Positions 1 to 7,118 of a stretch of DNA of 35,389 nt are shown one piece after another. Origin of the DNA: a virus (taxonomy: Duplodnaviria > Heunggongvirae > Uroviricota > Caudoviricetes); IMG/VR virus record IMGVR_UViG_2563367158_000001; one strand, given 5' to 3'. The translations under genes were made by a program, and so were the position numbers. How positions within the stretch are numbered: position 1 is the stretch's first letter; every line of letters starts with the position of its first letter. Below the pieces are notes generated by a model that was not told the origin of the DNA, did no database searches, and saw nothing but the letters and a program-made list of their open reading frames with translations.

Positions 1-1254
1 ATGCTGGAACAAATGGGCATTGCCGCGAAGCAAGCCTCGTATAAATTAGCGCAACTCTCCAGCCGCGAAAAAAATCGTGTGCTGGAAAAAATCGCCGATG
101 AACTGGAAGCACAAAGCGAAAGTATCCTCAACGCTAACGCGCAGGATGTTGCAGACGCGCGTGCCAATGGCCTTAGCGAAGCGATGCTTGACCGTCTGGC
201 ACTGACGCCCGCACGGCTGAAAGGCATTGCCGACGATGTGCGCCAGGTGTGCAATCTCGCCGATCCGGTGGGGCAGGTAATCGATGGCGGCGTACTGGAC
301 AGCGGCCTGCGTCTGGAGCGCCGTCGCGTGCCGCTGGGGGTGATTGGCGTGATTTATGAAGCGCGCCCGAACGTGACGGTTGATGTTGCTTCCCTGTGCC
401 TGAAAACCGGTAACGCGGTGATCCTGCGCGGCGGCAAAGAAACCTGTCGCACTAACGCTGCAACGGTAGCGGTGATTCAGGACGCCCTGAAATCCTGCGG
501 CTTACCGGCGGGTGCCGTGCAGGCAATTGATAATCCTGACCGTGCGCTGGTCAGTGAAATGCTGCGTATGGATAAATACATCGACATGCTGATCCCGCGC
601 GGTGGGGCTGGTTTGCATAAACTGTGCCGCGAGCAGTCGACAATCCCGGTGATCACAGGCGGTATAGGCGTATGCCATATTTACGTTGATGAAAGCGCAG
701 AGATCGCTGAAGTATTAAAAGTGATCGTCAACGCGAAAACTCAGCGACCAAGCACATGTAATACGGTAGAAACCTTGCTGGTAAATAAAAACATCGCCGA
801 TAGCTTCCTGCCCGCATTAAGCAAGCAAATGGCGGAAAGCGGCGTGACGTTACACGCAGATGCTGCTGCGCTGGCGCAGTTGCAGACAGGCCCCGCGAAG
901 GTGGTGGCGGTTAAAGCCGAAGAGTATGACGATGAGTTTCTGTCATTAGATTTGAACGTCAAAATCGTTAGCGATCTTGACGATGCCATCGCCCATATTC
1001 GTGAACACGGCACGCAACACTCCGATGCGATCCTGACCCGCGATATGCGCAACGCCCAGCGTTTTGTTAACGAAGTGGATTCCTCCGCTGTTTACGTTAA
1101 CGCCTCTACGCGTTTTACCGACGGCGGCCAGTTTGGACTGGGGGCGGAAGTTGCGGTAAGCACACAAAAACTCCACGCGCGCGGCCCAATGGGGCTGGAA
1201 GCACTGACCACTTATAAGTGGATCGGCATTGGTGATTACACCATTCGTGCGTAA
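1..1254 (+). CDS. proA: gamma-glutamyl phosphate reductase (host gene)
   Basis: 417-aa ORF whose translation I recognise as enterobacterial ProA; typical host GC content; directly upstream of thrW as in E. coli. Confidence 0.93.
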
Positions 1255-1368: not shown

Positions 1369-1444
1369 GCCGATATAGCTCAGTTGGTAGAGCAGCGCAT
1401 TCGTAATGCGAAGGTCGTAGGTTCGACTCCTATTATCGGCACCA
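1369..1444 (+). tRNA. thrW: tRNA-Thr (anticodon CGU); prophage integration target (attL side)
   Basis: 76-nt sequence GCCGATATAGCTCAGTTGG...GGTTCGACTCCTATTATCGGCACCA with cloverleaf elements and CGT in the anticodon loop; integrase gene ends 15 nt downstream. Confidence 0.9.
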
Positions 1445-1458
1445 TTTAAATCAATAAG

Positions 1459-2622
1459 TTACACATCATTAGTACCTTCCTTATTTCTTGACTGGGACAA
1501 ATTTGGGACCGATGGGTTCAGAATCGAGTCTATTTGCCGTGCGTGTTCGGTAAGGTGATTAGGTGCGAGGTGAGCATATCGACGAACCATTTCGATAGAC
1601 TCCCAGCCTCCCATTTCCTGTAACACTGATAACGGGACTCCGGCTTGAACCAGCCAACTTGCCCAGGTGTGTCTCAAGTCGTGAAATCTGAAATCATCAA
1701 TACCTGCTCGTCTCAGCGCCGCTTTCCAGGCTGTGTTTGCGTCATACCGCATCTTCCTGACTGTTGGCGCTTTCGTTCCGTCTGGTTTGGTACAGCTTTC
1801 CTTATACACAAATACCCAACGGTGATGATTCCCGATTTGTTTTTTCAATACGCGACATGCAGTATCATTCAGCGCAACGCCAATTGCGCGGTTTGATTTA
1901 CTCTCTTCCGGGTTTATCCATGCCACCCGGCGCTGCATGTCTATTTGTTGCCATTCAAGGTTGATGATGTTCGAGCGTCTTAAGCCTGTTGCAAGTGCAA
2001 ATTCAACAACAGACTTTAATGGCTCCGGACATTCATCAATCAGCCTTTGTGCTTCATGAGGCTCCAGCCAGCGGATCCGTTTATTCTTTGGTTGAGGCAC
2101 TTTAATAATTGGTGCCTTATCCAGCATTTTCCATTCACGCTCTGCGGCTCTTAGCAGGGCCTTTATAAATGAAAGATGCGTAGCCTTCGTTGCAACGGAC
2201 GCTGGTTTTGGCGTGTATTCTGGAACAGGTTTCCCTTTTTTTCTGCATGCTTCTGCCCTGAGTTTCCAGTTTTCCTCATGACGCCGGTTCGTCATTTTCT
2301 GCATTGCTGAATAAATTTTTGATTCAGTAATGTCTCTTAGTTGCATTCCTGCGAAATGTTGAAGCCAGAATCCGATCCGGCTTTTGTCATCGTCCAGTGA
2401 TTTTTTATGTGCTTTCTCTTCAAGCCACCTGACACACGCTTCCTCGAACGTTATATCAGGAATTTCACCAAGTTTGCTGACCCGCCATGCTTCAGCCTTT
2501 AGCTTGTCATGGAGTTCTGTCGCCTGCCTTTTGTCCTTTGTTCCAAGAGACTGTTTAAATCTTTTACCGTTCGGCAATGTGAAACTGGCGTACCATATTT
2601 CACCTCTGCGGAAGAGTGACAT
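1459..2622 (-). CDS. int: phage integrase, tyrosine recombinase (P22-type)
   Basis: 387-aa ORF; N-terminus [22 protein letters not shown] and C-terminal [10 protein letters not shown]...RY catalytic region typical of P22-family integrases; adjacent to tRNA. Confidence 0.92.
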
Positions 2623-2849
2623 TTTCTTTCCTCTGTTATGCCATCACCCGCGCTCACCTGGACAGTATGCAGCGGAGACTGAAGCGCCGCAATGCAGGCT
2701 TGTCGTGTTGTGAGGTAAGGAGATTTATTCTTAGTGGGATCTTTGCGTGTTGCCTGCAGACGCCCTGTGCGTATCCAGTTAATGGCAGTCGGTCTGGATA
2801 TCTTGAGAAAATGACAGGCCTCATCTAGCGTGAGGCTGTATGGTTCCAT
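2499..2849 (-). CDS. xis: excisionase
   Basis: 116-aa product starting at internal Met ([29 protein letters not shown]...) of the 2499..2933 ORF; helix-turn-helix-like N-terminus; immediately upstream of int; start overlaps upstream stop (TAATG). Confidence 0.75.
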
Positions 2850-3154
2850 TATTTCACCTCTTGCTGTGATATTGTTGAAAAATGAATGCCAGCTCGTTGT
2901 TGCCAGACGATCCAACCGAGAGTCATATCCCATGCCATGTATTCGTTATCGCCGTTTTTTGCTCTCCGACTATCTACTAAGCCACCGAAACGTTTTTCCA
3001 TAAATAATTCATAGGATTCGCGTTCATCTGGCTCTACTTCCAGAGATAGGAGTGCGATTTCATAAGCACGGCGCTCAATATCGTCTCGCACGTCAAGGCT
3101 GCTGATACGCTCTTTGATTTCTTTAATCAGTTCTTTGTCGGTAAAAGTGGTCAT
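2849..3154 (-). CDS. hypothetical early-left protein
   Basis: 101-aa ORF, translationally coupled to flanking genes in the int-proximal minus-strand operon. Confidence 0.5.
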   Translation of the reverse strand: MTTFTDKELIKEIKERISSLDVRDDIERRAYEIALLSLEVEPDERESYELFMEKRFGGLVDSRRAKNGDNEYMAWDMTLGWIVWQQRAGIHFSTISQQEVK

Positions 3155-3516
3155 TATGCTCCAGCCTCCGGTGCTTTTGGCATTACTGCCCAGTGAGTGA
3201 TATTGACGTTTTCAAGGTCCCCGACCTGAAATGTCCACTGCCAGTCTCCGGTTTCTTTTTGTCCCCAGGTGTACCAGAGAGAACGCCAGCCAATTAGCCA
3301 GCCTTCTCCGTTAGCATCGAATAACAAAACACTTTCATTTGCTGGTGGCAGTTCAGTTGACACTGGTATTACTTTGTTTTCCAGTGCCGCACATTTAGCT
3401 TCAAGCGCATCGAATTTACGCACCAGGTATTCAGCATCCGTTTCATTCACTTTCAGATCTCGCGGTACACATTTCCCGCGAAGAAACCCTTCCATTTCGA
3501 AAACATTCATGCGCAT
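3154..3516 (-). CDS. DUF551-like phage protein
   Basis: 120-aa ORF with Trp-rich core and C-terminal THWAVMPKAPE resembling the DUF551 signature; operon context. Confidence 0.55.
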   Translation of the reverse strand: MRMNVFEMEGFLRGKCVPRDLKVNETDAEYLVRKFDALEAKCAALENKVIPVSTELPPANESVLLFDANGEGWLIGWRSLWYTWGQKETGDWQWTFQVGDLENVNITHWAVMPKAPEAGA

Positions 3517-4043
3517 TTGCGTAACTCCGATAACTCGTTAAAACGTTCCATAAACATCCCGTAGGCATGGCCTGGCGACAGTGGAATAACTTTGAACATC
3601 TCTGTTGCTGGGATACCTTCCAGTAGAGGCCAGAAAGAGCCATCATCAAGCCCGAGATCGCGGCGTTCGGTTGCCAGCATGATGAGATCGGCATATTTCA
3701 CGGGCGTGCTCATAACCGGGGGTAACCCGTATTTCTCACGGATTACGGCGTCTATTTTTTCTTCCATCCGTTTATAGTCAGGAAGAAGGCGTTTCAGTTG
3801 CGCGGGGATGTCCTGACAATACGCTTCTGTTGCATCATGCATTAACGCTTCAAAGGCGAACTCTGGCGCCACAAGTTGACTGCACAGAACGGAATGCTGC
3901 GCCACGCTGTAAAAATCCGGCAAGTGTCCCGCGAAGCGGCAGATATTTGAAAGCGCACCGGCGATATCCTCGATATAAATATCGTCAATGGTGGAGTTGA
4001 TATAATTGAACTTCTTACCGGTAAGAGTCTGGATAAAACTCAT
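3507..4043 (-). CDS. HD-domain phosphohydrolase (5'-deoxynucleotidase-like)
   Basis: 178-aa ORF with H...HD metal-binding motif (AQHSV ... MHDATEAY) characteristic of the HD superfamily; AGGAG-like RBS upstream. Confidence 0.75.
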   Translation of the reverse strand: MSFIQTLTGKKFNYINSTIDDIYIEDIAGALSNICRFAGHLPDFYSVAQHSVLCSQLVAPEFAFEALMHDATEAYCQDIPAQLKRLLPDYKRMEEKIDAVIREKYGLPPVMSTPVKYADLIMLATERRDLGLDDGSFWPLLEGIPATEMFKVIPLSPGHAYGMFMERFNELSELRKCA

Positions 4044-4200
4044 CGTTAGTTCTCCTTAATTGGTGCGCTGCACCGCACGATTTTTGGTTGCACGAATCCC
4101 TCGCCATAAGGCGATTAAAAGTTTTGGTTTCGTTTCAGTAAATGCCCCATCCAGAGGCACTTAGTGCAACGGGCGGCTGCCATCGCCAGTTATTTTCCCC

Positions 4201-4285
4201 ACTCAATTGAAAGCGCGTTCCGGAGGTTTTGGACTTAACGAACTGGCACTTAATGACAAGGGACAGAACGCGCTTTCAGTTGAGT
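4201..4285. repeat. inverted repeat: 20-bp arms (19/20 complementary) separated by 45 bp
   Basis: ACTCAATTGAAAGCGCGTTC (4201-4220) and GAACGCGCTTTCAGTTGAGT (4266-4285) are reverse complements with one mismatch; lies in a 420-bp non-coding gap. Confidence 0.6.
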
Positions 4286-4433
4286 AAAAAGGTGGCTATT
4301 CATCAGAACATTGTCGCCTTCATTAGGTTTATCTGTTGAAGATCTGTAAGCCGCTTATAAATAAGTAGATATAAGATATTAGGAAAAGAAGAAGGACGTT
4401 ATAGTTTTATTTGTGATGTGCAAAGTATATTTG

Positions 4434-4456
4434 AATAAAACCCGCCCAGCGGGTTC
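4434..4456 (-). terminator. rho-independent terminator downstream of the membrane-protein gene
   Basis: Minus-strand hairpin CCCGC-TGG-GCGGG followed by a U-tract (plus strand AATAAAACCCGCCCAGCGGGTT), 10 nt after the stop of 4466..5062. Confidence 0.6.
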
Positions 4457-4465
4457 TAAAGTGTT

Positions 4466-5062
4466 TTAATGATTGTCGTAATAATTAATTGGCTCATCAT
4501 TTTTTTGGTCTGGCATAGTTATGGACCACTTTATATTCTTTAGGCTGTTATGTTTTTTATTGACCTTAAGCTCTCTCTTTGCTTCAGAGATAATATCGTC
4601 TAGTAATACTTTTAATTTATCAAGTCTTGACTTGTGGGCATCTATCAACTCTATACTATCAAACTCCCATTGTATAAATAGATTTTCTTCATTTTCAATG
4701 AATGAACGGATTTTATCCCCACACTCTTCTGTTAAGAATAATGAAGATAGCTCACCTATTCTACTGAGTTTTTCAAGCTCATTAGAGAAAGATTTGCTAA
4801 GGATTTCATTTTCTTCTTTTGATTTGTAACTAAAGTAGGTTGGGAATTGTGAAGCGTGATGTAACTCATGTTTATACCAATAGTCAGCTGTGTTTTTTAG
4901 AAGATAAACACAGTCAACTAATTGCGTATACAAATCTATTCTTTTGTCCCACCATTTTTCTTTATAATAACGGCCGAGTGCATATCGCGCAGTTAAGTAA
5001 GCTGCGATTGAGCCTGTAACAAGTCCGATAATTACCTTTGATATAAGGTCATGCCAATCCAT
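4466..5062 (-). CDS. hypothetical single-pass membrane protein in an AT-rich insertion; candidate exclusion or abortive-infection factor
   Basis: 198-aa ORF; N-terminal hydrophobic helix (IIGLVTGSIAAYLTARYAL) then an aromatic- and Lys/Glu-rich domain; about 30% GC by eye; own terminator; AT-rich leader upstream. Confidence 0.7.
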   Translation of the reverse strand: MDWHDLISKVIIGLVTGSIAAYLTARYALGRYYKEKWWDKRIDLYTQLVDCVYLLKNTADYWYKHELHHASQFPTYFSYKSKEENEILSKSFSNELEKLSRIGELSSLFLTEECGDKIRSFIENEENLFIQWEFDSIELIDAHKSRLDKLKVLLDDIISEAKRELKVNKKHNSLKNIKWSITMPDQKNDEPINYYDNH

Positions 5063-5479
5063 TTTTATTTTTCCTACATTATGTTATATAATTGTTCATA
5101 TCATACAATTGTTGAGTATAGATGTCTCGTTATTCATCAACATTTACTCCTGTTAAATTAGGGGGAGTATGTATTAAAAATATTCATCTGGGTCGTCTAA
5201 ATATTTTTGATAAACTAATAGCAATAACACTATCAATATTGCCTGCCCTCACGTCGTTCTTGCTCTCGCGCGATTTTTAACTAAACACTAGCAGGATTTA
5301 TCATGGTGCTACGCTACATTTACTTGTAGGGAGCTAAACAGATCATTGACGCTGAAAATATTCAAATTGTTAAAGAGCGAAGCGTCCTATGGGCGTTTTG
5401 TTGCTAACGAATCATCTTGGACTTCATATGCCCCAGGCGGCTACTTCGTGGACGTCCTGCCTGTTTGTTGTTTCTCTTG

Positions 5480-5513
5480 GGTACATTATGTATCTCAAAG
5501 GTACATTGTCAAG
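5480..5513. promoter_or_regulatory. OL-like operator repeats (two GGTACA sites 20 bp apart)
   Basis: GGTACATTATGTAT and GGTACATTGTCAAG resemble GGTACATATTGTAT and the TGTACC/GGTACA palindromes in the cI-cro intergenic region. Confidence 0.4.
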
Positions 5514-5514
5514 T

Positions 5515-5540
5515 ATAAAAAAACCTGCCGAAGCAGGTTC
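5515..5540 (-). terminator. rho-independent terminator after cI
   Basis: Minus-strand hairpin AACCTGC-TTCG-GCAGGTT followed by a run of T (plus strand AAAAAAACCTGCCGAAGCAGGTT), immediately after the cI stop. Confidence 0.65.
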
Positions 5541-5551
5541 ATAAACATTGA

Positions 5552-6226
5552 TTAGGCTTTGATTTTGTATCTTCTTGGTTTTCCTGAGAAAATCACTGTA
5601 CCAATTATAGAGCAATTACCGTTGATCTTAATGTAAGGCTCAGGCCAGTTTGGGTTTAACGCTTTGAGATAACGCTGTGTCCCATCTTCTATCAACCTTT
5701 TGAAGGTGGTTTCACCTGTATCGTGCATCAATGCAATAACGTCGTCACCGTGGCAGGCAGGTACTTCAGGATCGACAAAAATCATGTCTCCCGGGCGGTA
5801 CTCATCAATCATTGAATCACCTATCACCCGCAAGATATAAGTCATTTCCCCACAGGGGACAGGGCAGGGATACGTTTCTGCTGTGCTCAAATCAACCTCA
5901 GAATATCCAACTTCTTTCCATGCTCCGGCCTGTACCCATGATATGACAGGGACTAATGTGATTTGTTTATTAGTGATTGAAACATCAGGTTTTTTTGTGA
6001 TGTTCGTTGTCTGGTGTTCTTGATCGAGCCATCCGACAGGCAGGTCGAAACATTTTTCGATGTGTCGTGCCATGCTGTCACCGATATTTTTAGTAGCACC
6101 ATCTCCCATAAACCTGCTGGTCTGGGTTGGCTCGCGATCAATCATAGTGGCAAAGGAAGAATTCCCGCCAACACCATCTCTCAGTTTTCTGGCGTTAGAC
6201 CGCCGGATGTCATGGATTGTTTTCAT
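5552..6226 (-). CDS. cI: CI-type prophage repressor (HTH plus S24 LexA-like peptidase domain)
   Basis: 224-aa ORF; C-terminal GDSM...DGD...K region typical of self-cleaving S24 repressors; divergent to cro. Confidence 0.9.
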   Translation of the reverse strand: MKTIHDIRRSNARKLRDGVGGNSSFATMIDREPTQTSRFMGDGATKNIGDSMARHIEKCFDLPVGWLDQEHQTTNITKKPDVSITNKQITLVPVISWVQAGAWKEVGYSEVDLSTAETYPCPVPCGEMTYILRVIGDSMIDEYRPGDMIFVDPEVPACHGDDVIALMHDTGETTFKRLIEDGTQRYLKALNPNWPEPYIKINGNCSIIGTVIFSGKPRRYKIKA

Positions 6227-6241
6227 AACGAAATTAAAACC

Positions 6242-6316
6242 CTTGTACCGTTAAGGTACAAGTATCTTGAAGGTTCATTTCAATCATGTAATATGTACAT
6301 CGGAGGTACATATTGT
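6242..6316. promoter_or_regulatory. OR operator / PR-PRM region
   Basis: 8-bp inverted arms CTTGTACC/GGTACAAG with a 5-bp spacer (6242-6262), a second TGTACA-N5-GGTACA pair 50 bp downstream, and a sigma70-like PR (TTGAAG-N16-TAATAT, 6267-6294) before the cro RBS GGAGG. Confidence 0.6.
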
Positions 6317-6517
6317 ATGAAAGCGTATTGGGACTCTTTAACCAAAGAACAGCAGGGCGAGTTGGCCGGAAAAGTTGGCTCAACACCTGGCTACTTACGG
6401 CTGGTTTTCAATGGCTATAAAAAAGCCAGTTTTGTGCTGGCTAAAAAACTTGAGCAATGCACGTCAGGTGCAATTACGAAATCTGACTTAAGACCGGATA
6501 TCTATCCGAAAGATTAG
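6317..6517 (+). CDS. cro: Cro-like repressor
   Basis: 66-aa product from the ATG 10 nt after GGAGG (internal start of ORF 6014..6517); small basic HTH-like protein divergent from cI. Confidence 0.7.
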   Translation: MKAYWDSLTKEQQGELAGKVGSTPGYLRLVFNGYKKASFVLAKKLEQCTSGAITKSDLRPDIYPKD

Positions 6518-6548
6518 CAGAACACTTTCAATTTTTAACCACAGAACG

Positions 6549-7118
6549 ATGAGGCTAATCGTGGGTAAGCATCACTGGAAAATAGAAAAACAGCCTGAGT
6601 GGTACGTGAAAGCTGTCAGAAAAACTATCGCGGCGTTGCCGGGTGGTTACGCTGAAGCGGCTGACTGGCTCGATGTAACAGAAAACGCTTTATTCAACCG
6701 CCTTCGTGCAGATGGCGATCAGATTTTCCCGCTGGGATGGGCAATGGTTTTACAGCGTGCTGGTGGCACTCACTTCATTGCTGATGCTGTGGCGCAGTCT
6801 GCAAATGGCGTCTTTGTGTCTCTTCCTGACGTCGAGGATGTGGACAACGCCGATATTAACCAGCGTCTGCTGGAAGTCATTGAACAGATCGGCAGTTATT
6901 CAAAACAGATTCGTTCAGCAATCGAAGACGGTGTAGTGGAACCGCATGAGAAGACAGCAATTAACGACGAGCTGTATCTCTCAATTTCGAAGCTGCAGGA
7001 GCATGCAGCACTTGTCTACAAAATTTTTTGCATTTCAGAAAGTAATGACGCCCGCGAGTGTGCAGCTCCGGGCGTCGTGGCGTCGATTGCTTCTGGTTGT
7101 GGAGAAACTAACGCATGA
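6549..7118 (+). CDS. putative CII-like regulatory protein (family not verified)
   Basis: 189-aa ORF at the position following cro; no motif I can assign confidently. Confidence 0.5.

Follow-up and report, generated by a model that had tools for sequence, protein, structure and literature searches.

How does a lambdoid prophage without an N gene bring transcription from its leftward promoter to its early-left genes? The question is raised by a viral DNA of 35,389 nt (IMG/VR record IMGVR_UViG_2563367158_000001; the whole stretch is called the window), in which positions 5063-6316 comprise the immunity switch, together with the early-left leader, of a lambdoid prophage that is of the e14/SfV type, belongs to an N-less lineage and resides at thrW. 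A sequence-only reading of these positions had proposed operators built on GTAC-core repeats, a leftward promoter firing into an AT-rich island and, as no N-like gene was seen, either a separate promoter for the early-left genes or an RNA-based antitermination element in the long leader. The first 120 nt of the transcript from the leftward promoter (PL) were found to contain a conserved 67-nt RNA motif and a consensus BoxA. The best explanation, to which we give an even chance, is a lambda-like switch combined with N-independent, RNA-based protection of PL transcription, in which BoxA and Nus factors would counteract Rho and the 67-nt motif would act similarly to the put RNA of phage HK022.

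The leftward transcript and the lack of N

A consensus scan of 3900-6700 yielded one best promoter-like site:

5485-5512, minus strand: PL, composed of TTGACA (5512-5507), a 16-bp spacer and CATAAT (5490-5485), a match at 11/12 positions, with the start predicted at about 5478

The same site carries the label "promoter" in the record of phage Ayreon. The leftward promoter that the sequence-only reading implied is most probably this near-consensus site, which is overlapped by the operators of the left operator region (OL). From the predicted start to the ATG at 5062, 416 nt are untranslated and AT-rich. Only the first 120 nt or so of this leader (5358-5478) are conserved, and the rest is moron DNA. 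Homology to relatives ends at 5455 (Ayreon, Stx2c), 5406 (SfV, e14) or 5358 (SfIV, PhiR29). Folding of the leader, which had been suggested as a check, showed no special stability of the whole 416 nt (z = -1.55), and 5063-5357 gave no structural signal. Candidates for the postulated RNA-based element, i.e., the 67-nt motif and BoxA, are present, but they are confined to the promoter-proximal 120 nt.

The expectation that no N-like open reading frame (ORF) lies between OL and the leftward genes was confirmed, as the minus-strand ORFs in 5063-5423 do not exceed 20-22 amino acids (aa). A scan of the window for arginine-rich motifs found no arginine-rich small ORF in a plausible position, only spurious out-of-frame ORFs, and an N-like gene was found in none of about 20 related phages and loci that were inspected. 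Several small ORFs of relatives were considered as N candidates and rejected because they are not arginine-rich (SfV orf33, 68-aa ORFs of SfIV and of the related locus L018, and a 122-aa helix-turn-helix (HTH) ORF of mEp460). A nut site of the lambda type, in which BoxA is followed within about 10 nt by a boxB with a GNRA-like 5-nt loop, downstream of both PL and the rightward promoter (PR), was not found in the window. Phages SfII, SfV and SfIV have been described as being without homologues of N, cII and cIII (PMC3851460). The absence of N is real, yet it is already published for this phage group.

A 67-nt RNA motif at the start of the PL transcript

The conserved part of the leader contains a three-helix structure close to the predicted start:

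5404-5470, minus strand: RNA motif of 67 nt with three helices, spanning about +9 to +75 from the predicted PL start, supported by covariation and a covariance model
5464-5468 with 5407-5411, minus strand: helix P1
5459-5461 with 5451-5453, minus strand: P1a, a 3-bp hairpin
between P1a and P2, minus strand: invariant junction CACGAAGUAGC
5433-5439 with 5413-5420, minus strand: P2, closing the 12-nt loop GGCAUAUGAAGU

The motif became visible by comparative analysis only, whereas the fold of the isolated 121-nt leader was not unusual (z = 0.1). In an alignment of 14 diverse copies, 98.6% of the cells were paired, and compensatory changes were found in 9 of the 15 base pairs. The compensatory cells amounted to 33, compared to 7.5 in shuffled alignments (none of 500 was as good) and to at most 7 when the pairing partners were slid. 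P1 is GCGAA/UUCGC, swapped for CCACC/GGUGG or UCAUC/GAUGG in some copies. The stem of P2 is even fully changed between phages, while its 12-nt loop GGCRUAYGAANN is kept.

The covariance model had a single match in the window, at 5404-5470 (83.4 bits, E = 1e-27; the runner-up had 12.6 bits), which shows that there is no copy of the motif on the PR side. Among 51 related loci that were scanned, 26 contained the motif, each of them exactly once. A blastn search located approximately the first 65 nt of the leader in 43 phage records from eight genera (Escherichia, Shigella, Salmonella, Klebsiella, Citrobacter, Yersinia, Pectobacterium and Pantoea), and in every such record that was examined, the motif is situated just downstream of the repressor gene and its promoter. 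It is absent from Rfam, both at the gathering score and at E <= 10. Its carriers often have long untranslated leaders (e.g., 992 nt in phiNP); the nearest start codon is 342 nt away in the window and about 0.9 kb away in phiNP. Untranslated leaders of 0.2-1 kb were found in many N-less lambdoids with the motif, some of them without BoxA. Several mEp phages, which were isolated as Nus-dependent (PMC11893012), carry the motif.

The 3' part of the motif (5404-5416, minus strand) can also be read as AUG AUU CGU UAG (Met-Ile-Arg-stop), and the same stretch is AUG AUU CGC UAA/UGA or AUG AGR UGG in other phages. This recalls the bar minigenes on the PL transcript of lambda, but the covariation of P1 explains the variation fully. 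Ayreon (L002, 3449-4096) and mEp390 (L006, 3624-4404) share another conserved leader (…ACGGYRUAUGGCACAUGYGYCG…GCGGUC…), which suggests that other leader RNA families occupy the position of the motif in these phages.

A consensus BoxA and its upstream hairpin

Two further elements follow the motif on the PL transcript:

5382-5396, minus strand: hairpin hpB, ACGCC-CAUA-GGACGC, 3 nt upstream of BoxA
5367-5379, minus strand: BoxA, cGCUCUUUAACAA, an exact match that is oriented like the PL transcript and lies 100 nt from its predicted start

The core of this BoxA (GCTCTTTAACA, 5378-5368, minus strand) is the only exact match in the window, and the extended stretch cGCUCUUUAACAAuuu comprises 5379-5364 on the same strand. 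Fifteen bases of this stretch are presumably identical to the BoxA of the Escherichia coli rrn leaders. The window BoxA agrees at every position with the consensus GYTCTTTAANA, which was derived experimentally (PMC5725501), and, like an rrn-type BoxA, it lies in sense orientation in the promoter-proximal part of an untranslated transcript, 306 nt from the next start codon.

Of 71 distinct contexts with this leader, 42 have the hairpin together with BoxA. The pair was seen in 7 of the 14 architectures that were inspected, and it lies behind at least four different immunity regions. Where BoxA is present among the relatives, it is always in sense and always a single copy; the stem of hpB is conserved, with a variable loop and weak covariation. 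Downstream of the module there are mostly antisense morons or untranslated DNA; the BoxA-less leaders of SfV and e14, in contrast, reach a translated ORF within 25-100 nt. A strict rule that BoxA occurs only with an untranslated leader had to be rejected: L007 and phiNP have long untranslated or antisense stretches without BoxA, and leaders of the SfIV type have BoxA 46 nt before a small sense ORF with a strong Shine-Dalgarno (SD) motif.

RNAalifold predicted a pairing of the invariant junction GAAGUAGC (5443-5450) with GCUCUUU of BoxA (5372-5378) on the minus strand, with 7 bp that are all invariant. It could sequester BoxA or be a coincidence; the junction is equally conserved in phages without BoxA. 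A BoxA-like sequence with two mismatches (ACTCTTTAACCA, 6333-6344, plus strand) overlaps the cro gene at codons 6-9, at a distance of about 30 nt from where PR transcription is predicted to begin, and is probably due to chance.

The putative operators of the switch

The GGTACA/TGTACC sites reported by the sequence-only reading are all present (5480, 5500, 6244 on the minus strand, 6255 and 6305). The window contains 23 copies of this word compared to 10.9 expected, a number that was reached in none of 100 shuffles. The repeat unit turned out to be larger, namely 17 bp with the sequence TGTAYM-N5-GGTACA. With at most one mismatch, it occurs only four times in 35,389 bp, and all four sites are in OL or in the right operator region (OR). 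These sites, a fifth, degenerate one and the nearby transcription signals are:

5469-5485: operator OL-a, TGTTTC-TCTTG-GGTACA (one mismatch), covers the end of the PL -10 element through about +10
5489-5505: operator OL-b, TGTATC-TCAAA-GGTACA, fills the PL spacer
6244-6260: operator OR-a, TGTACC-GTTAA-GGTACA, core of a 21-bp palindrome (6242-6262)
6261-6277: degenerate operator OR-mid, AGTATC-TTGAA-GGTTCA (AGTATCTTGAAGGTTCA), lies over the PR -35 element and abuts OR-a
6294-6310: operator OR-b, TGTACA-TCGGA-GGTACA, with the arms ATATGTAC/GTACATAT (6292-6312)
6267-6294, plus strand: predicted PR, TTGAAG, 16-bp spacer, TAATAT, read from the sequence
6233-6261, minus strand: predicted cI promoter PRM, TTGTAC, 17-bp spacer, TTTAAT, read from the sequence by analogy to lambda PRM
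5515-5540, minus strand: intrinsic terminator of cI, GAACCUGCUUCGGCAGGUU followed by U7, -11.6 kcal/mol

The palindrome with 8-bp arms (6242-6262), the further pair at a distance of 50 bp (6292-6312) and the OL pair 20 bp apart had been described correctly. The layout as two pairs needs revision: with the degenerate site at 6261-6277, which had been missed, OR probably has three sites, as in lambda. OR-a overlaps the -35 element and the spacer of the proposed PRM and thus would have a position like lambda OR3. OR-mid, centred 43 bp ahead of the cI ATG, would be the counterpart of lambda OR2. It is invariant in 14 of 15 OR variants, and a functional role may be assumed. OR-b spans the PR -10 element, the +1 position and the cro SD motif and would correspond to OR1. 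PR itself matches the consensus at only 8/12 positions, which is below the threshold of the scan, and therefore its existence is inferred. The cI ATG (6226) has no preceding SD motif, and PRM would start a leaderless cI mRNA at this very ATG. The cI terminator is annotated as such in SfV and in Ayreon.

A comparative set of 24 OL and 15 OR sequence variants from related phage contigs was used to characterize the operators. The half-sites are essentially invariant, whereas the central 5 bp are hypervariable; they vary freely except where they are part of a promoter hexamer or of the cro SD motif. The centre of OL-b is TCAAA, TCATA, TCATG, TCAAG or TCGTG, among others, and that of OR-a is GTTAA, GATAG, GATAA, GCTAA or GCCAA. 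Constant half-sites with free centres are the signature of a dimer-binding operator. The proposal that the repeats are repressor operators thus gained support, as they lie on PL, on PR and upstream of cI and behave in evolution like such sites. An S24 repressor gene divergent from a small HTH cro gene, with palindromic repeats over both promoters, is the arrangement of a lambdoid CI/Cro switch, and the OR stretch is called "putative operator region" in the GenBank record of SfV. The TGTAYM-N5-GGTACA sites would be recognized by the self-cleaving repressor, which is identical to YmfK.

In one IMG/VR relative (among L017-L136), OL contains three tandem 20-bp repeats (GGTACATTGTGTGTCCATGG), a natural variant in operator number. 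On the minus strand, the OR-a palindrome (6242-6262) followed by GGUUUUAAUU obtained a terminator-like score.

The moron island

The region between the conserved part of the leader and the early-left genes differs from its surroundings:

4293-5357, minus strand: AT-rich moron island, 33.5% GC (guanine plus cytosine), compared to 45-51% in the surroundings
5128-5100, minus strand: promoter-like site of the moron, GAGACA, 17-bp spacer, TATGAT
4466-5062, minus strand: 198-aa ORF, N-terminal stretch hydrophobic by eye, PHROG 17948 of unknown function
4433-4455, minus strand: intrinsic terminator of the moron, followed by UUUUAUU, -13.6 kcal/mol

The island with the 198-aa gene is rare, with no more than 16 carriers among 5,426 E. 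coli genomes. The low GC content, the rarity, and the presence of its own promoter-like site and terminator indicate that the island is a moron. The 198-aa protein had no match in Pfam or PADLOC. The terminator that had been noticed behind the membrane-protein gene is indeed a good intrinsic terminator. In relatives, the same slot contains rightward genes, sieB, a gene of the ECs1072 family, a tRNA-Arg gene or other morons.

A second structured leader ahead of the early-left genes

Downstream of the moron terminator, the first conserved early-left gene, which encodes an HD-domain hydrolase, is preceded by another structured RNA:

4041-4294, minus strand: second structured leader RNA, about 250 nt, fold z = -3.63
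4266-4278 with 4208-4220, minus strand: long hairpin of about 26 bp
4197-4202 with 4164-4169, minus strand: helix GUGGGG/UUGCAC
4182-4187 with 4172-4177, minus strand: hairpin hp2, loop UGGCAG
4154-4163 with 4139-4147, minus strand: hairpin hp3
4125-4133 with 4092-4100, minus strand: helix ACGAAACC/GGGAUUCGU, encloses hp4
4110-4114 with 4101-4105, minus strand: hairpin hp4
4074-4078 with 4063-4067, minus strand: hairpin hp5, loop GUGCAG
4057-4041, minus strand: SD motif and ATG of the HD gene

In an alignment of 12 sequences, 97.7% of the cells were paired, with 12 compensatory pairs compared to 4.5 in shuffles (0 of 500) and to at most 3 with slid partners. There were 71 G.U cells and only 3 A.C cells, an excess which shows that the RNA is read leftward. 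Rfam contained no match to this leader. Its relatives precede the first early-left gene of many N-less phages that have other immunity regions and other first genes; carriers are mEp390, SfV, several E. coli prophages, Citrobacter, Enterobacter, Kluyvera and Silvania. The small hairpins hp2 and hp5 share a conserved KKGCAG loop. The string GGGAUUCGUGCAACCAAAA forms the 3' side of the helix around another hairpin, and the related string GAUUCGUUAGCAACAAAA is the 3' side of P1 in the 67-nt motif; thus, this module is present twice on the PL transcript. As the leader is located downstream of terminators, it cannot carry the polymerase through them.

No sigma-70-like promoter was predicted on the minus strand between 1300 and 4500 by the consensus scan. 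An independent early-left promoter inside 4044-4430, which the sequence-only reading had named as the observation that would speak against it, was thus not found, and a separate sigma-70 promoter for the early-left genes was rejected as an explanation. The hairpin region with TGGCAG...TTGCA was also considered as a sigma-54 promoter and rejected, because the spacing is 7 instead of 5 and TTGCA is not conserved.

Several additional observations were made. The sequence GAUUCGU followed after 0-3 nt by GCAA occurs three times compared to 0.18 expected (4088-4098 and 5401-5413 on the minus strand, 6908-6921 on the plus strand). The two leftward copies are the 3' strands of closing helices, followed by a C/A-rich single strand and a GC hairpin; the third lies sense-rightward within ymfL and may be due to chance. 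In six loci of Pantoea, Erwinia and Buttiauxella (L155, L170, L172, L175, L177 and L179), a hairpin followed by GGGAUUCGUGCAAMCAAAA is found 10-30 nt upstream of the SD motifs of unrelated genes, which suggests that this short form is a portable cassette of 5'-untranslated regions. In relatives, a terminator-like hairpin with CUUUUUAC precedes the 250-nt leader, and its U-tract can pair with GGAGAA after the long hairpin; in the window, the moron junction replaces this hairpin. On the plus strand, hp5 (4061-4078) and hp2 (4172-4187) are followed by U-rich tracts and were scored as rightward terminators, which might insulate the immunity region against read-in.

Prophage context and gene map

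The window starts with proA (1-1254, plus strand). The genes around the immunity region are:

1369-1444, plus strand: tRNA-Thr(CGT), thrW, adjoins proA and lies directly ahead of the integrase gene
1459-2622, minus strand: int, from ORF and Pfam
1459-4043, minus strand: early-left block HD / DUF551 / yfdT-like / xis / int
3507-4043, minus strand: HD-domain hydrolase (YfdR-like), first conserved early-left gene, from the ORF list, Pfam and RefSeq annotation
5552-6226, minus strand: cI-type repressor of 224 aa with an S24 (LexA-like) self-cleavage domain, Pfam PF00717, 1.5e-26
6317-6517, plus strand: cro-like ymfT, YdaS-family HTH protein of 66 aa, divergent from cI, weak PF15943 and HTH_3 matches, RefSeq ymfT
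6549-7118, plus strand: YmfL, CII-like regulator of the Phage_CP76 family, Pfam PF06892, 1.3e-13

The thrW tRNA gene is the likely attachment site of the prophage. The repressor accession WP_000848748.1 is annotated in RefSeq both on the 100%-identical ECONIH4 copy and on ymfK of the K-12 element e14. The immunity region is 96-99% identical to those of SfV, SfIV, Ayreon, the cdtI phage, Stx2c phages and K-12 e14 (ymfK/ymfT/ymfL). A scan of the window with Rfam 15 yielded only the tRNA-Thr above the gathering score, and at E <= 10 over 3900-6400 only irrelevant chance matches were obtained. A plasmid search added nothing. The prophage anti-sRNAs AgvB and AsxR were considered and set aside, as they are downstream of PR' and unrelated.

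Comparison with known systems

With lambda, the window shares the divergent pair of an S24-type repressor gene and cro, the CII-like gene after cro, the 17-bp partially palindromic operators over PR, the cI promoter and PL, and the BoxA in the PL leader. A middle OR site some 43 bp away from the start of cI, which probably makes OR tripartite, and the probably leaderless cI mRNA would be further common features. In contrast to lambda, the operator word has a GTAC core, the spacings are 17, 33 and 20 bp, and OL has two recognizable sites. There is neither an N gene nor a rightward nut equivalent, BoxA is not followed by a boxB with a GNRA-like pentaloop, as the hairpin precedes it, and it has the full rrn-type consensus, while that of lambda is CGCUCUUA.

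The likeness to the BoxA elements of rrn operons and of arrays of clustered regularly interspaced short palindromic repeats (CRISPR) consists in the perfect GYTCTTTAANA consensus, the promoter-proximal position ahead of a long untranslated RNA, and the independence from a phage protein; a hairpin just upstream of BoxA is also found as boxB in rrn leaders. The window differs from both in that the element lies in the early operon of a prophage, that a protein-coding moron and an intrinsic terminator follow, and that only a part of the phage family has it. BoxA alone, together with host Nus factors, shields the long untranslated RNA of CRISPR arrays from Rho (PMC7665894).

cI, cro, OR, OL and PL are 96-99% identical to those of SfV, SfIV, SfII and e14, and the early-left genes HD/YfdR, DUF551, yfdT, xis and int are also shared. 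SfV and e14 both have the 67-nt motif, without the extension by hairpin and BoxA. Compared to this group, yfdP and yfdQ are missing from the window, which has its private 1-kb moron instead.

The PL leader of HK022, likewise an N-less lambdoid, contains putL, an antiterminator RNA that acts in cis, is about 70 nt long and begins at position +3 (PMC9378689). The target of put RNAs is the beta' zinc-binding domain of RNA polymerase. The 67-nt motif resembles it in being a structured RNA of about 70 nt right after PL of an N-less lambdoid (+9 to +75 compared to +3 to +73 for putL) and in being conserved across phages with different immunity regions. A blastn comparison of the window leader with the PL-PR region of HK022 yielded only chance 11-15-mers. 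A blastn search with putL found 21 phages (HK022, HK75, O276, phiEt88, UPF_BP1, HK639 and others), none of which is of the SfV, e14 or ST64B type. Membership of the motif in the put family was rejected because of the lack of sequence similarity and the different topology; that it is a functional analogue of put is plausible by analogy.

Mechanism and alternative explanations

The mechanism that we favour starts from what was observed, i.e., the sequence architecture, its conservation and covariation, and the lack of N. The YmfK-type repressor would hold the three OR sites, which lie on PR, on the PR -35 element and on the cI promoter, as well as the two OL sites on PL. Upon derepression, PL would transcribe leftward, and the nascent RNA would fold the 67-nt motif and then expose the hairpin and BoxA. 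These cis-acting elements in the first 120 nt would stand in for N. BoxA would work as it does in rRNA operons and CRISPR arrays and recruit the host factors NusB/NusE, together with NusA, NusG and SuhB, and the Nus-modified polymerase would resist Rho over the 416-nt untranslated moron leader, or over the antisense morons in relatives. The 67-nt motif would act on the elongation complex like HK022 put, including in phages without BoxA. The 198-aa gene would have been inserted later, as a moron that brought its own promoter and terminator, and the latter might be partly leaky or might be overridden by the motif as a put-like modifier. Transcripts that pass it would continue through the second leader (4041-4294) into the HD/DUF551/xis/int genes. 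That the repressor binds the sites, that Nus factors are recruited and that termination is suppressed at all are predictions at this stage.

A more far-reaching version can be formulated only tentatively, and we consider it doubtful: the motif may represent a second put-like class that confers cis-acting, protein-free termination resistance in N-less Enterobacterales lambdoids, reinforced by BoxA in some lineages and with the 250-nt leader as a part of the same control. The group would include e14, SfV/SfII/SfIV, ST64B, SPN3UB-type phages, ZF40, YeP1, AH07 and phiNP.

Several results weigh against protection by BoxA and a put-like motif. Intrinsic terminators are situated on the path of the polymerase, at 4433-4455 in the window and, in relatives, as a conserved hairpin with a U-tract before the long hairpin. 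BoxA/Nus complexes of rrn operons suppress Rho-dependent terminators and are not known to override intrinsic ones, and thus read-through at 4433-4455 is not explained by BoxA alone. BoxA is missing in half of the architectures (SfV, e14, mEp390, mEp460, L007, L008 and L010), which shows that it is accessory and not the general solution of the family. The motif, in turn, is absent from N-less Ayreon, which has the same immunity region, and from mEp390, which has the same downstream leader, and the window's own copy contains two non-canonical pairs. Concerning the analogy to put, the sets of carriers are disjoint (43 motif records and 21 putL phages), sequence similarity is lacking, no copy of the motif follows PR, and the motif is a three-helix junction with a long-range closing helix, whereas put consists of two adjacent stem-loops. 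In addition, a stabilizing, processing or translational role would fit the conservation of the motif equally well, and a BoxA next to a start codon can promote Rho termination, as at suhB (PMC5725501).

Four other explanations were weighed, which are not all mutually exclusive. According to the first, which we regard as unlikely, processive antitermination does not occur, PL transcripts are attenuated by Rho and at the intrinsic terminators, and the early-left genes are expressed via leaky read-through and/or from activator-dependent promoters (e.g., dependent on YmfL) near 4044-4465 or upstream of xis/int. The model for such a promoter is PI of lambda, which depends on CII, and a gene for a CII-family regulator does adjoin cro in the window. 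Activator-dependent promoters without a recognizable -35 element would escape the consensus scan, and the several intrinsic terminators between PL and int in the family, as well as the relatives without BoxA, are in agreement with simple attenuation. However, 4041-4294 evolves as a leftward RNA structure and not like a promoter, as seen from its 71 G.U and 3 A.C cells and the 12 compensatory pairs, and its alignment shows no conserved -10-like element. L010, the minimal architecture, has the structured leader right behind PL, without space for another unit. The strong conservation of the PL-proximal motif would also be left without an explanation.

The second explanation, which likewise seems unlikely, is that the leader RNAs act post-transcriptionally, as 5' stabilizers, as processing sites for RNase III (for which the 26-bp hairpin would be a substrate) or RNase E, or in translational control. 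Long perfect hairpins are typical of RNase III sites, e.g., in the lambda N leader and in sib. In Citrobacter, Enterobacter, Kluyvera, Buttiauxella, Pantoea and Erwinia, genes that are unrelated to each other have the hairpin-GGGAUUCGUGCAAMCAAAA form 10-60 nt before their start codons. Furthermore, the consensus fold has UUUCAC paired with a strand that contains GGAG, the SD-like GGAGAA is paired, and A/C-rich single strands lie ahead of real SD motifs. The 67-nt motif, in contrast, is located at the extreme 5' end of the transcript, often hundreds of nucleotides from a start codon, and a post-transcriptional role would not explain how the polymerase crosses long untranslated stretches in a Rho-proficient host. 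Such a role is compatible with RNA-based protection of PL transcription and does not exclude it.

The third explanation invokes an N-like protein that is encoded elsewhere, has escaped recognition and binds hp2 and hp5 as boxB-like sites, in conjunction with BoxA. The two GC-rich 5-bp hairpins with covarying stems and a near-invariant 6-nt loop (K-K-GCAG) look like protein-binding RNAs, BoxA lies upstream of them, and the mEp021 protein Gp17 is a precedent for an N-like protein in an unexpected position (PMC11893012). Nevertheless, this is very unlikely: the window has no ORF with an arginine-rich motif, hp2 and hp5 are downstream of the terminators that would have to be suppressed and about 1.2 kb away from BoxA, many of their carriers have no BoxA, and the U-rich tracts on the opposite strand mean that both could equally be rightward terminators. 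A negative BoxA, at which Nus binding promotes Rho termination in the leader and keeps early-left expression and moron read-through low, is the least probable of all, because, although BoxA-enhanced Rho termination is documented at suhB and hisG and the BoxA of the SfIV type lies 46 nt upstream of a small ORF, the suhB mechanism operates via translation of the adjacent gene, the window and most architectures have no start codon closer than 300 nt to BoxA, and a phage would have no obvious gain from ending its own early operon right after derepression.

Significance for N-less lambdoid phages

Two points are already on record for these phages, namely a putative operator region and the lack of N. 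To our knowledge, the 67-nt motif, the 250-nt leader, the N-less consensus BoxA, the third OR site and a supported 17-bp operator have not been described in Rfam or in the searchable literature. A survey of 2025 could only guess a "put-like" RNA for one such phage (PMC12315714).

N-less lambdoids include e14 of K-12, the serotype-converting phages of Shigella, ST64B, and relatives of Stx and Cdt phages. The locus offers easily mutated candidates for the control of N-less early transcription, i.e., the 67-nt motif, the rrn-type BoxA and the second structured leader, and the operator definition provides a testable immunity specificity for the widespread e14/SfV repressor. If the leader elements are active, antitermination that is protein-independent or requires only host factors would extend from one phage lineage to a broad group, with implications for how prophages with virulence and serotype-conversion genes are induced and excised.

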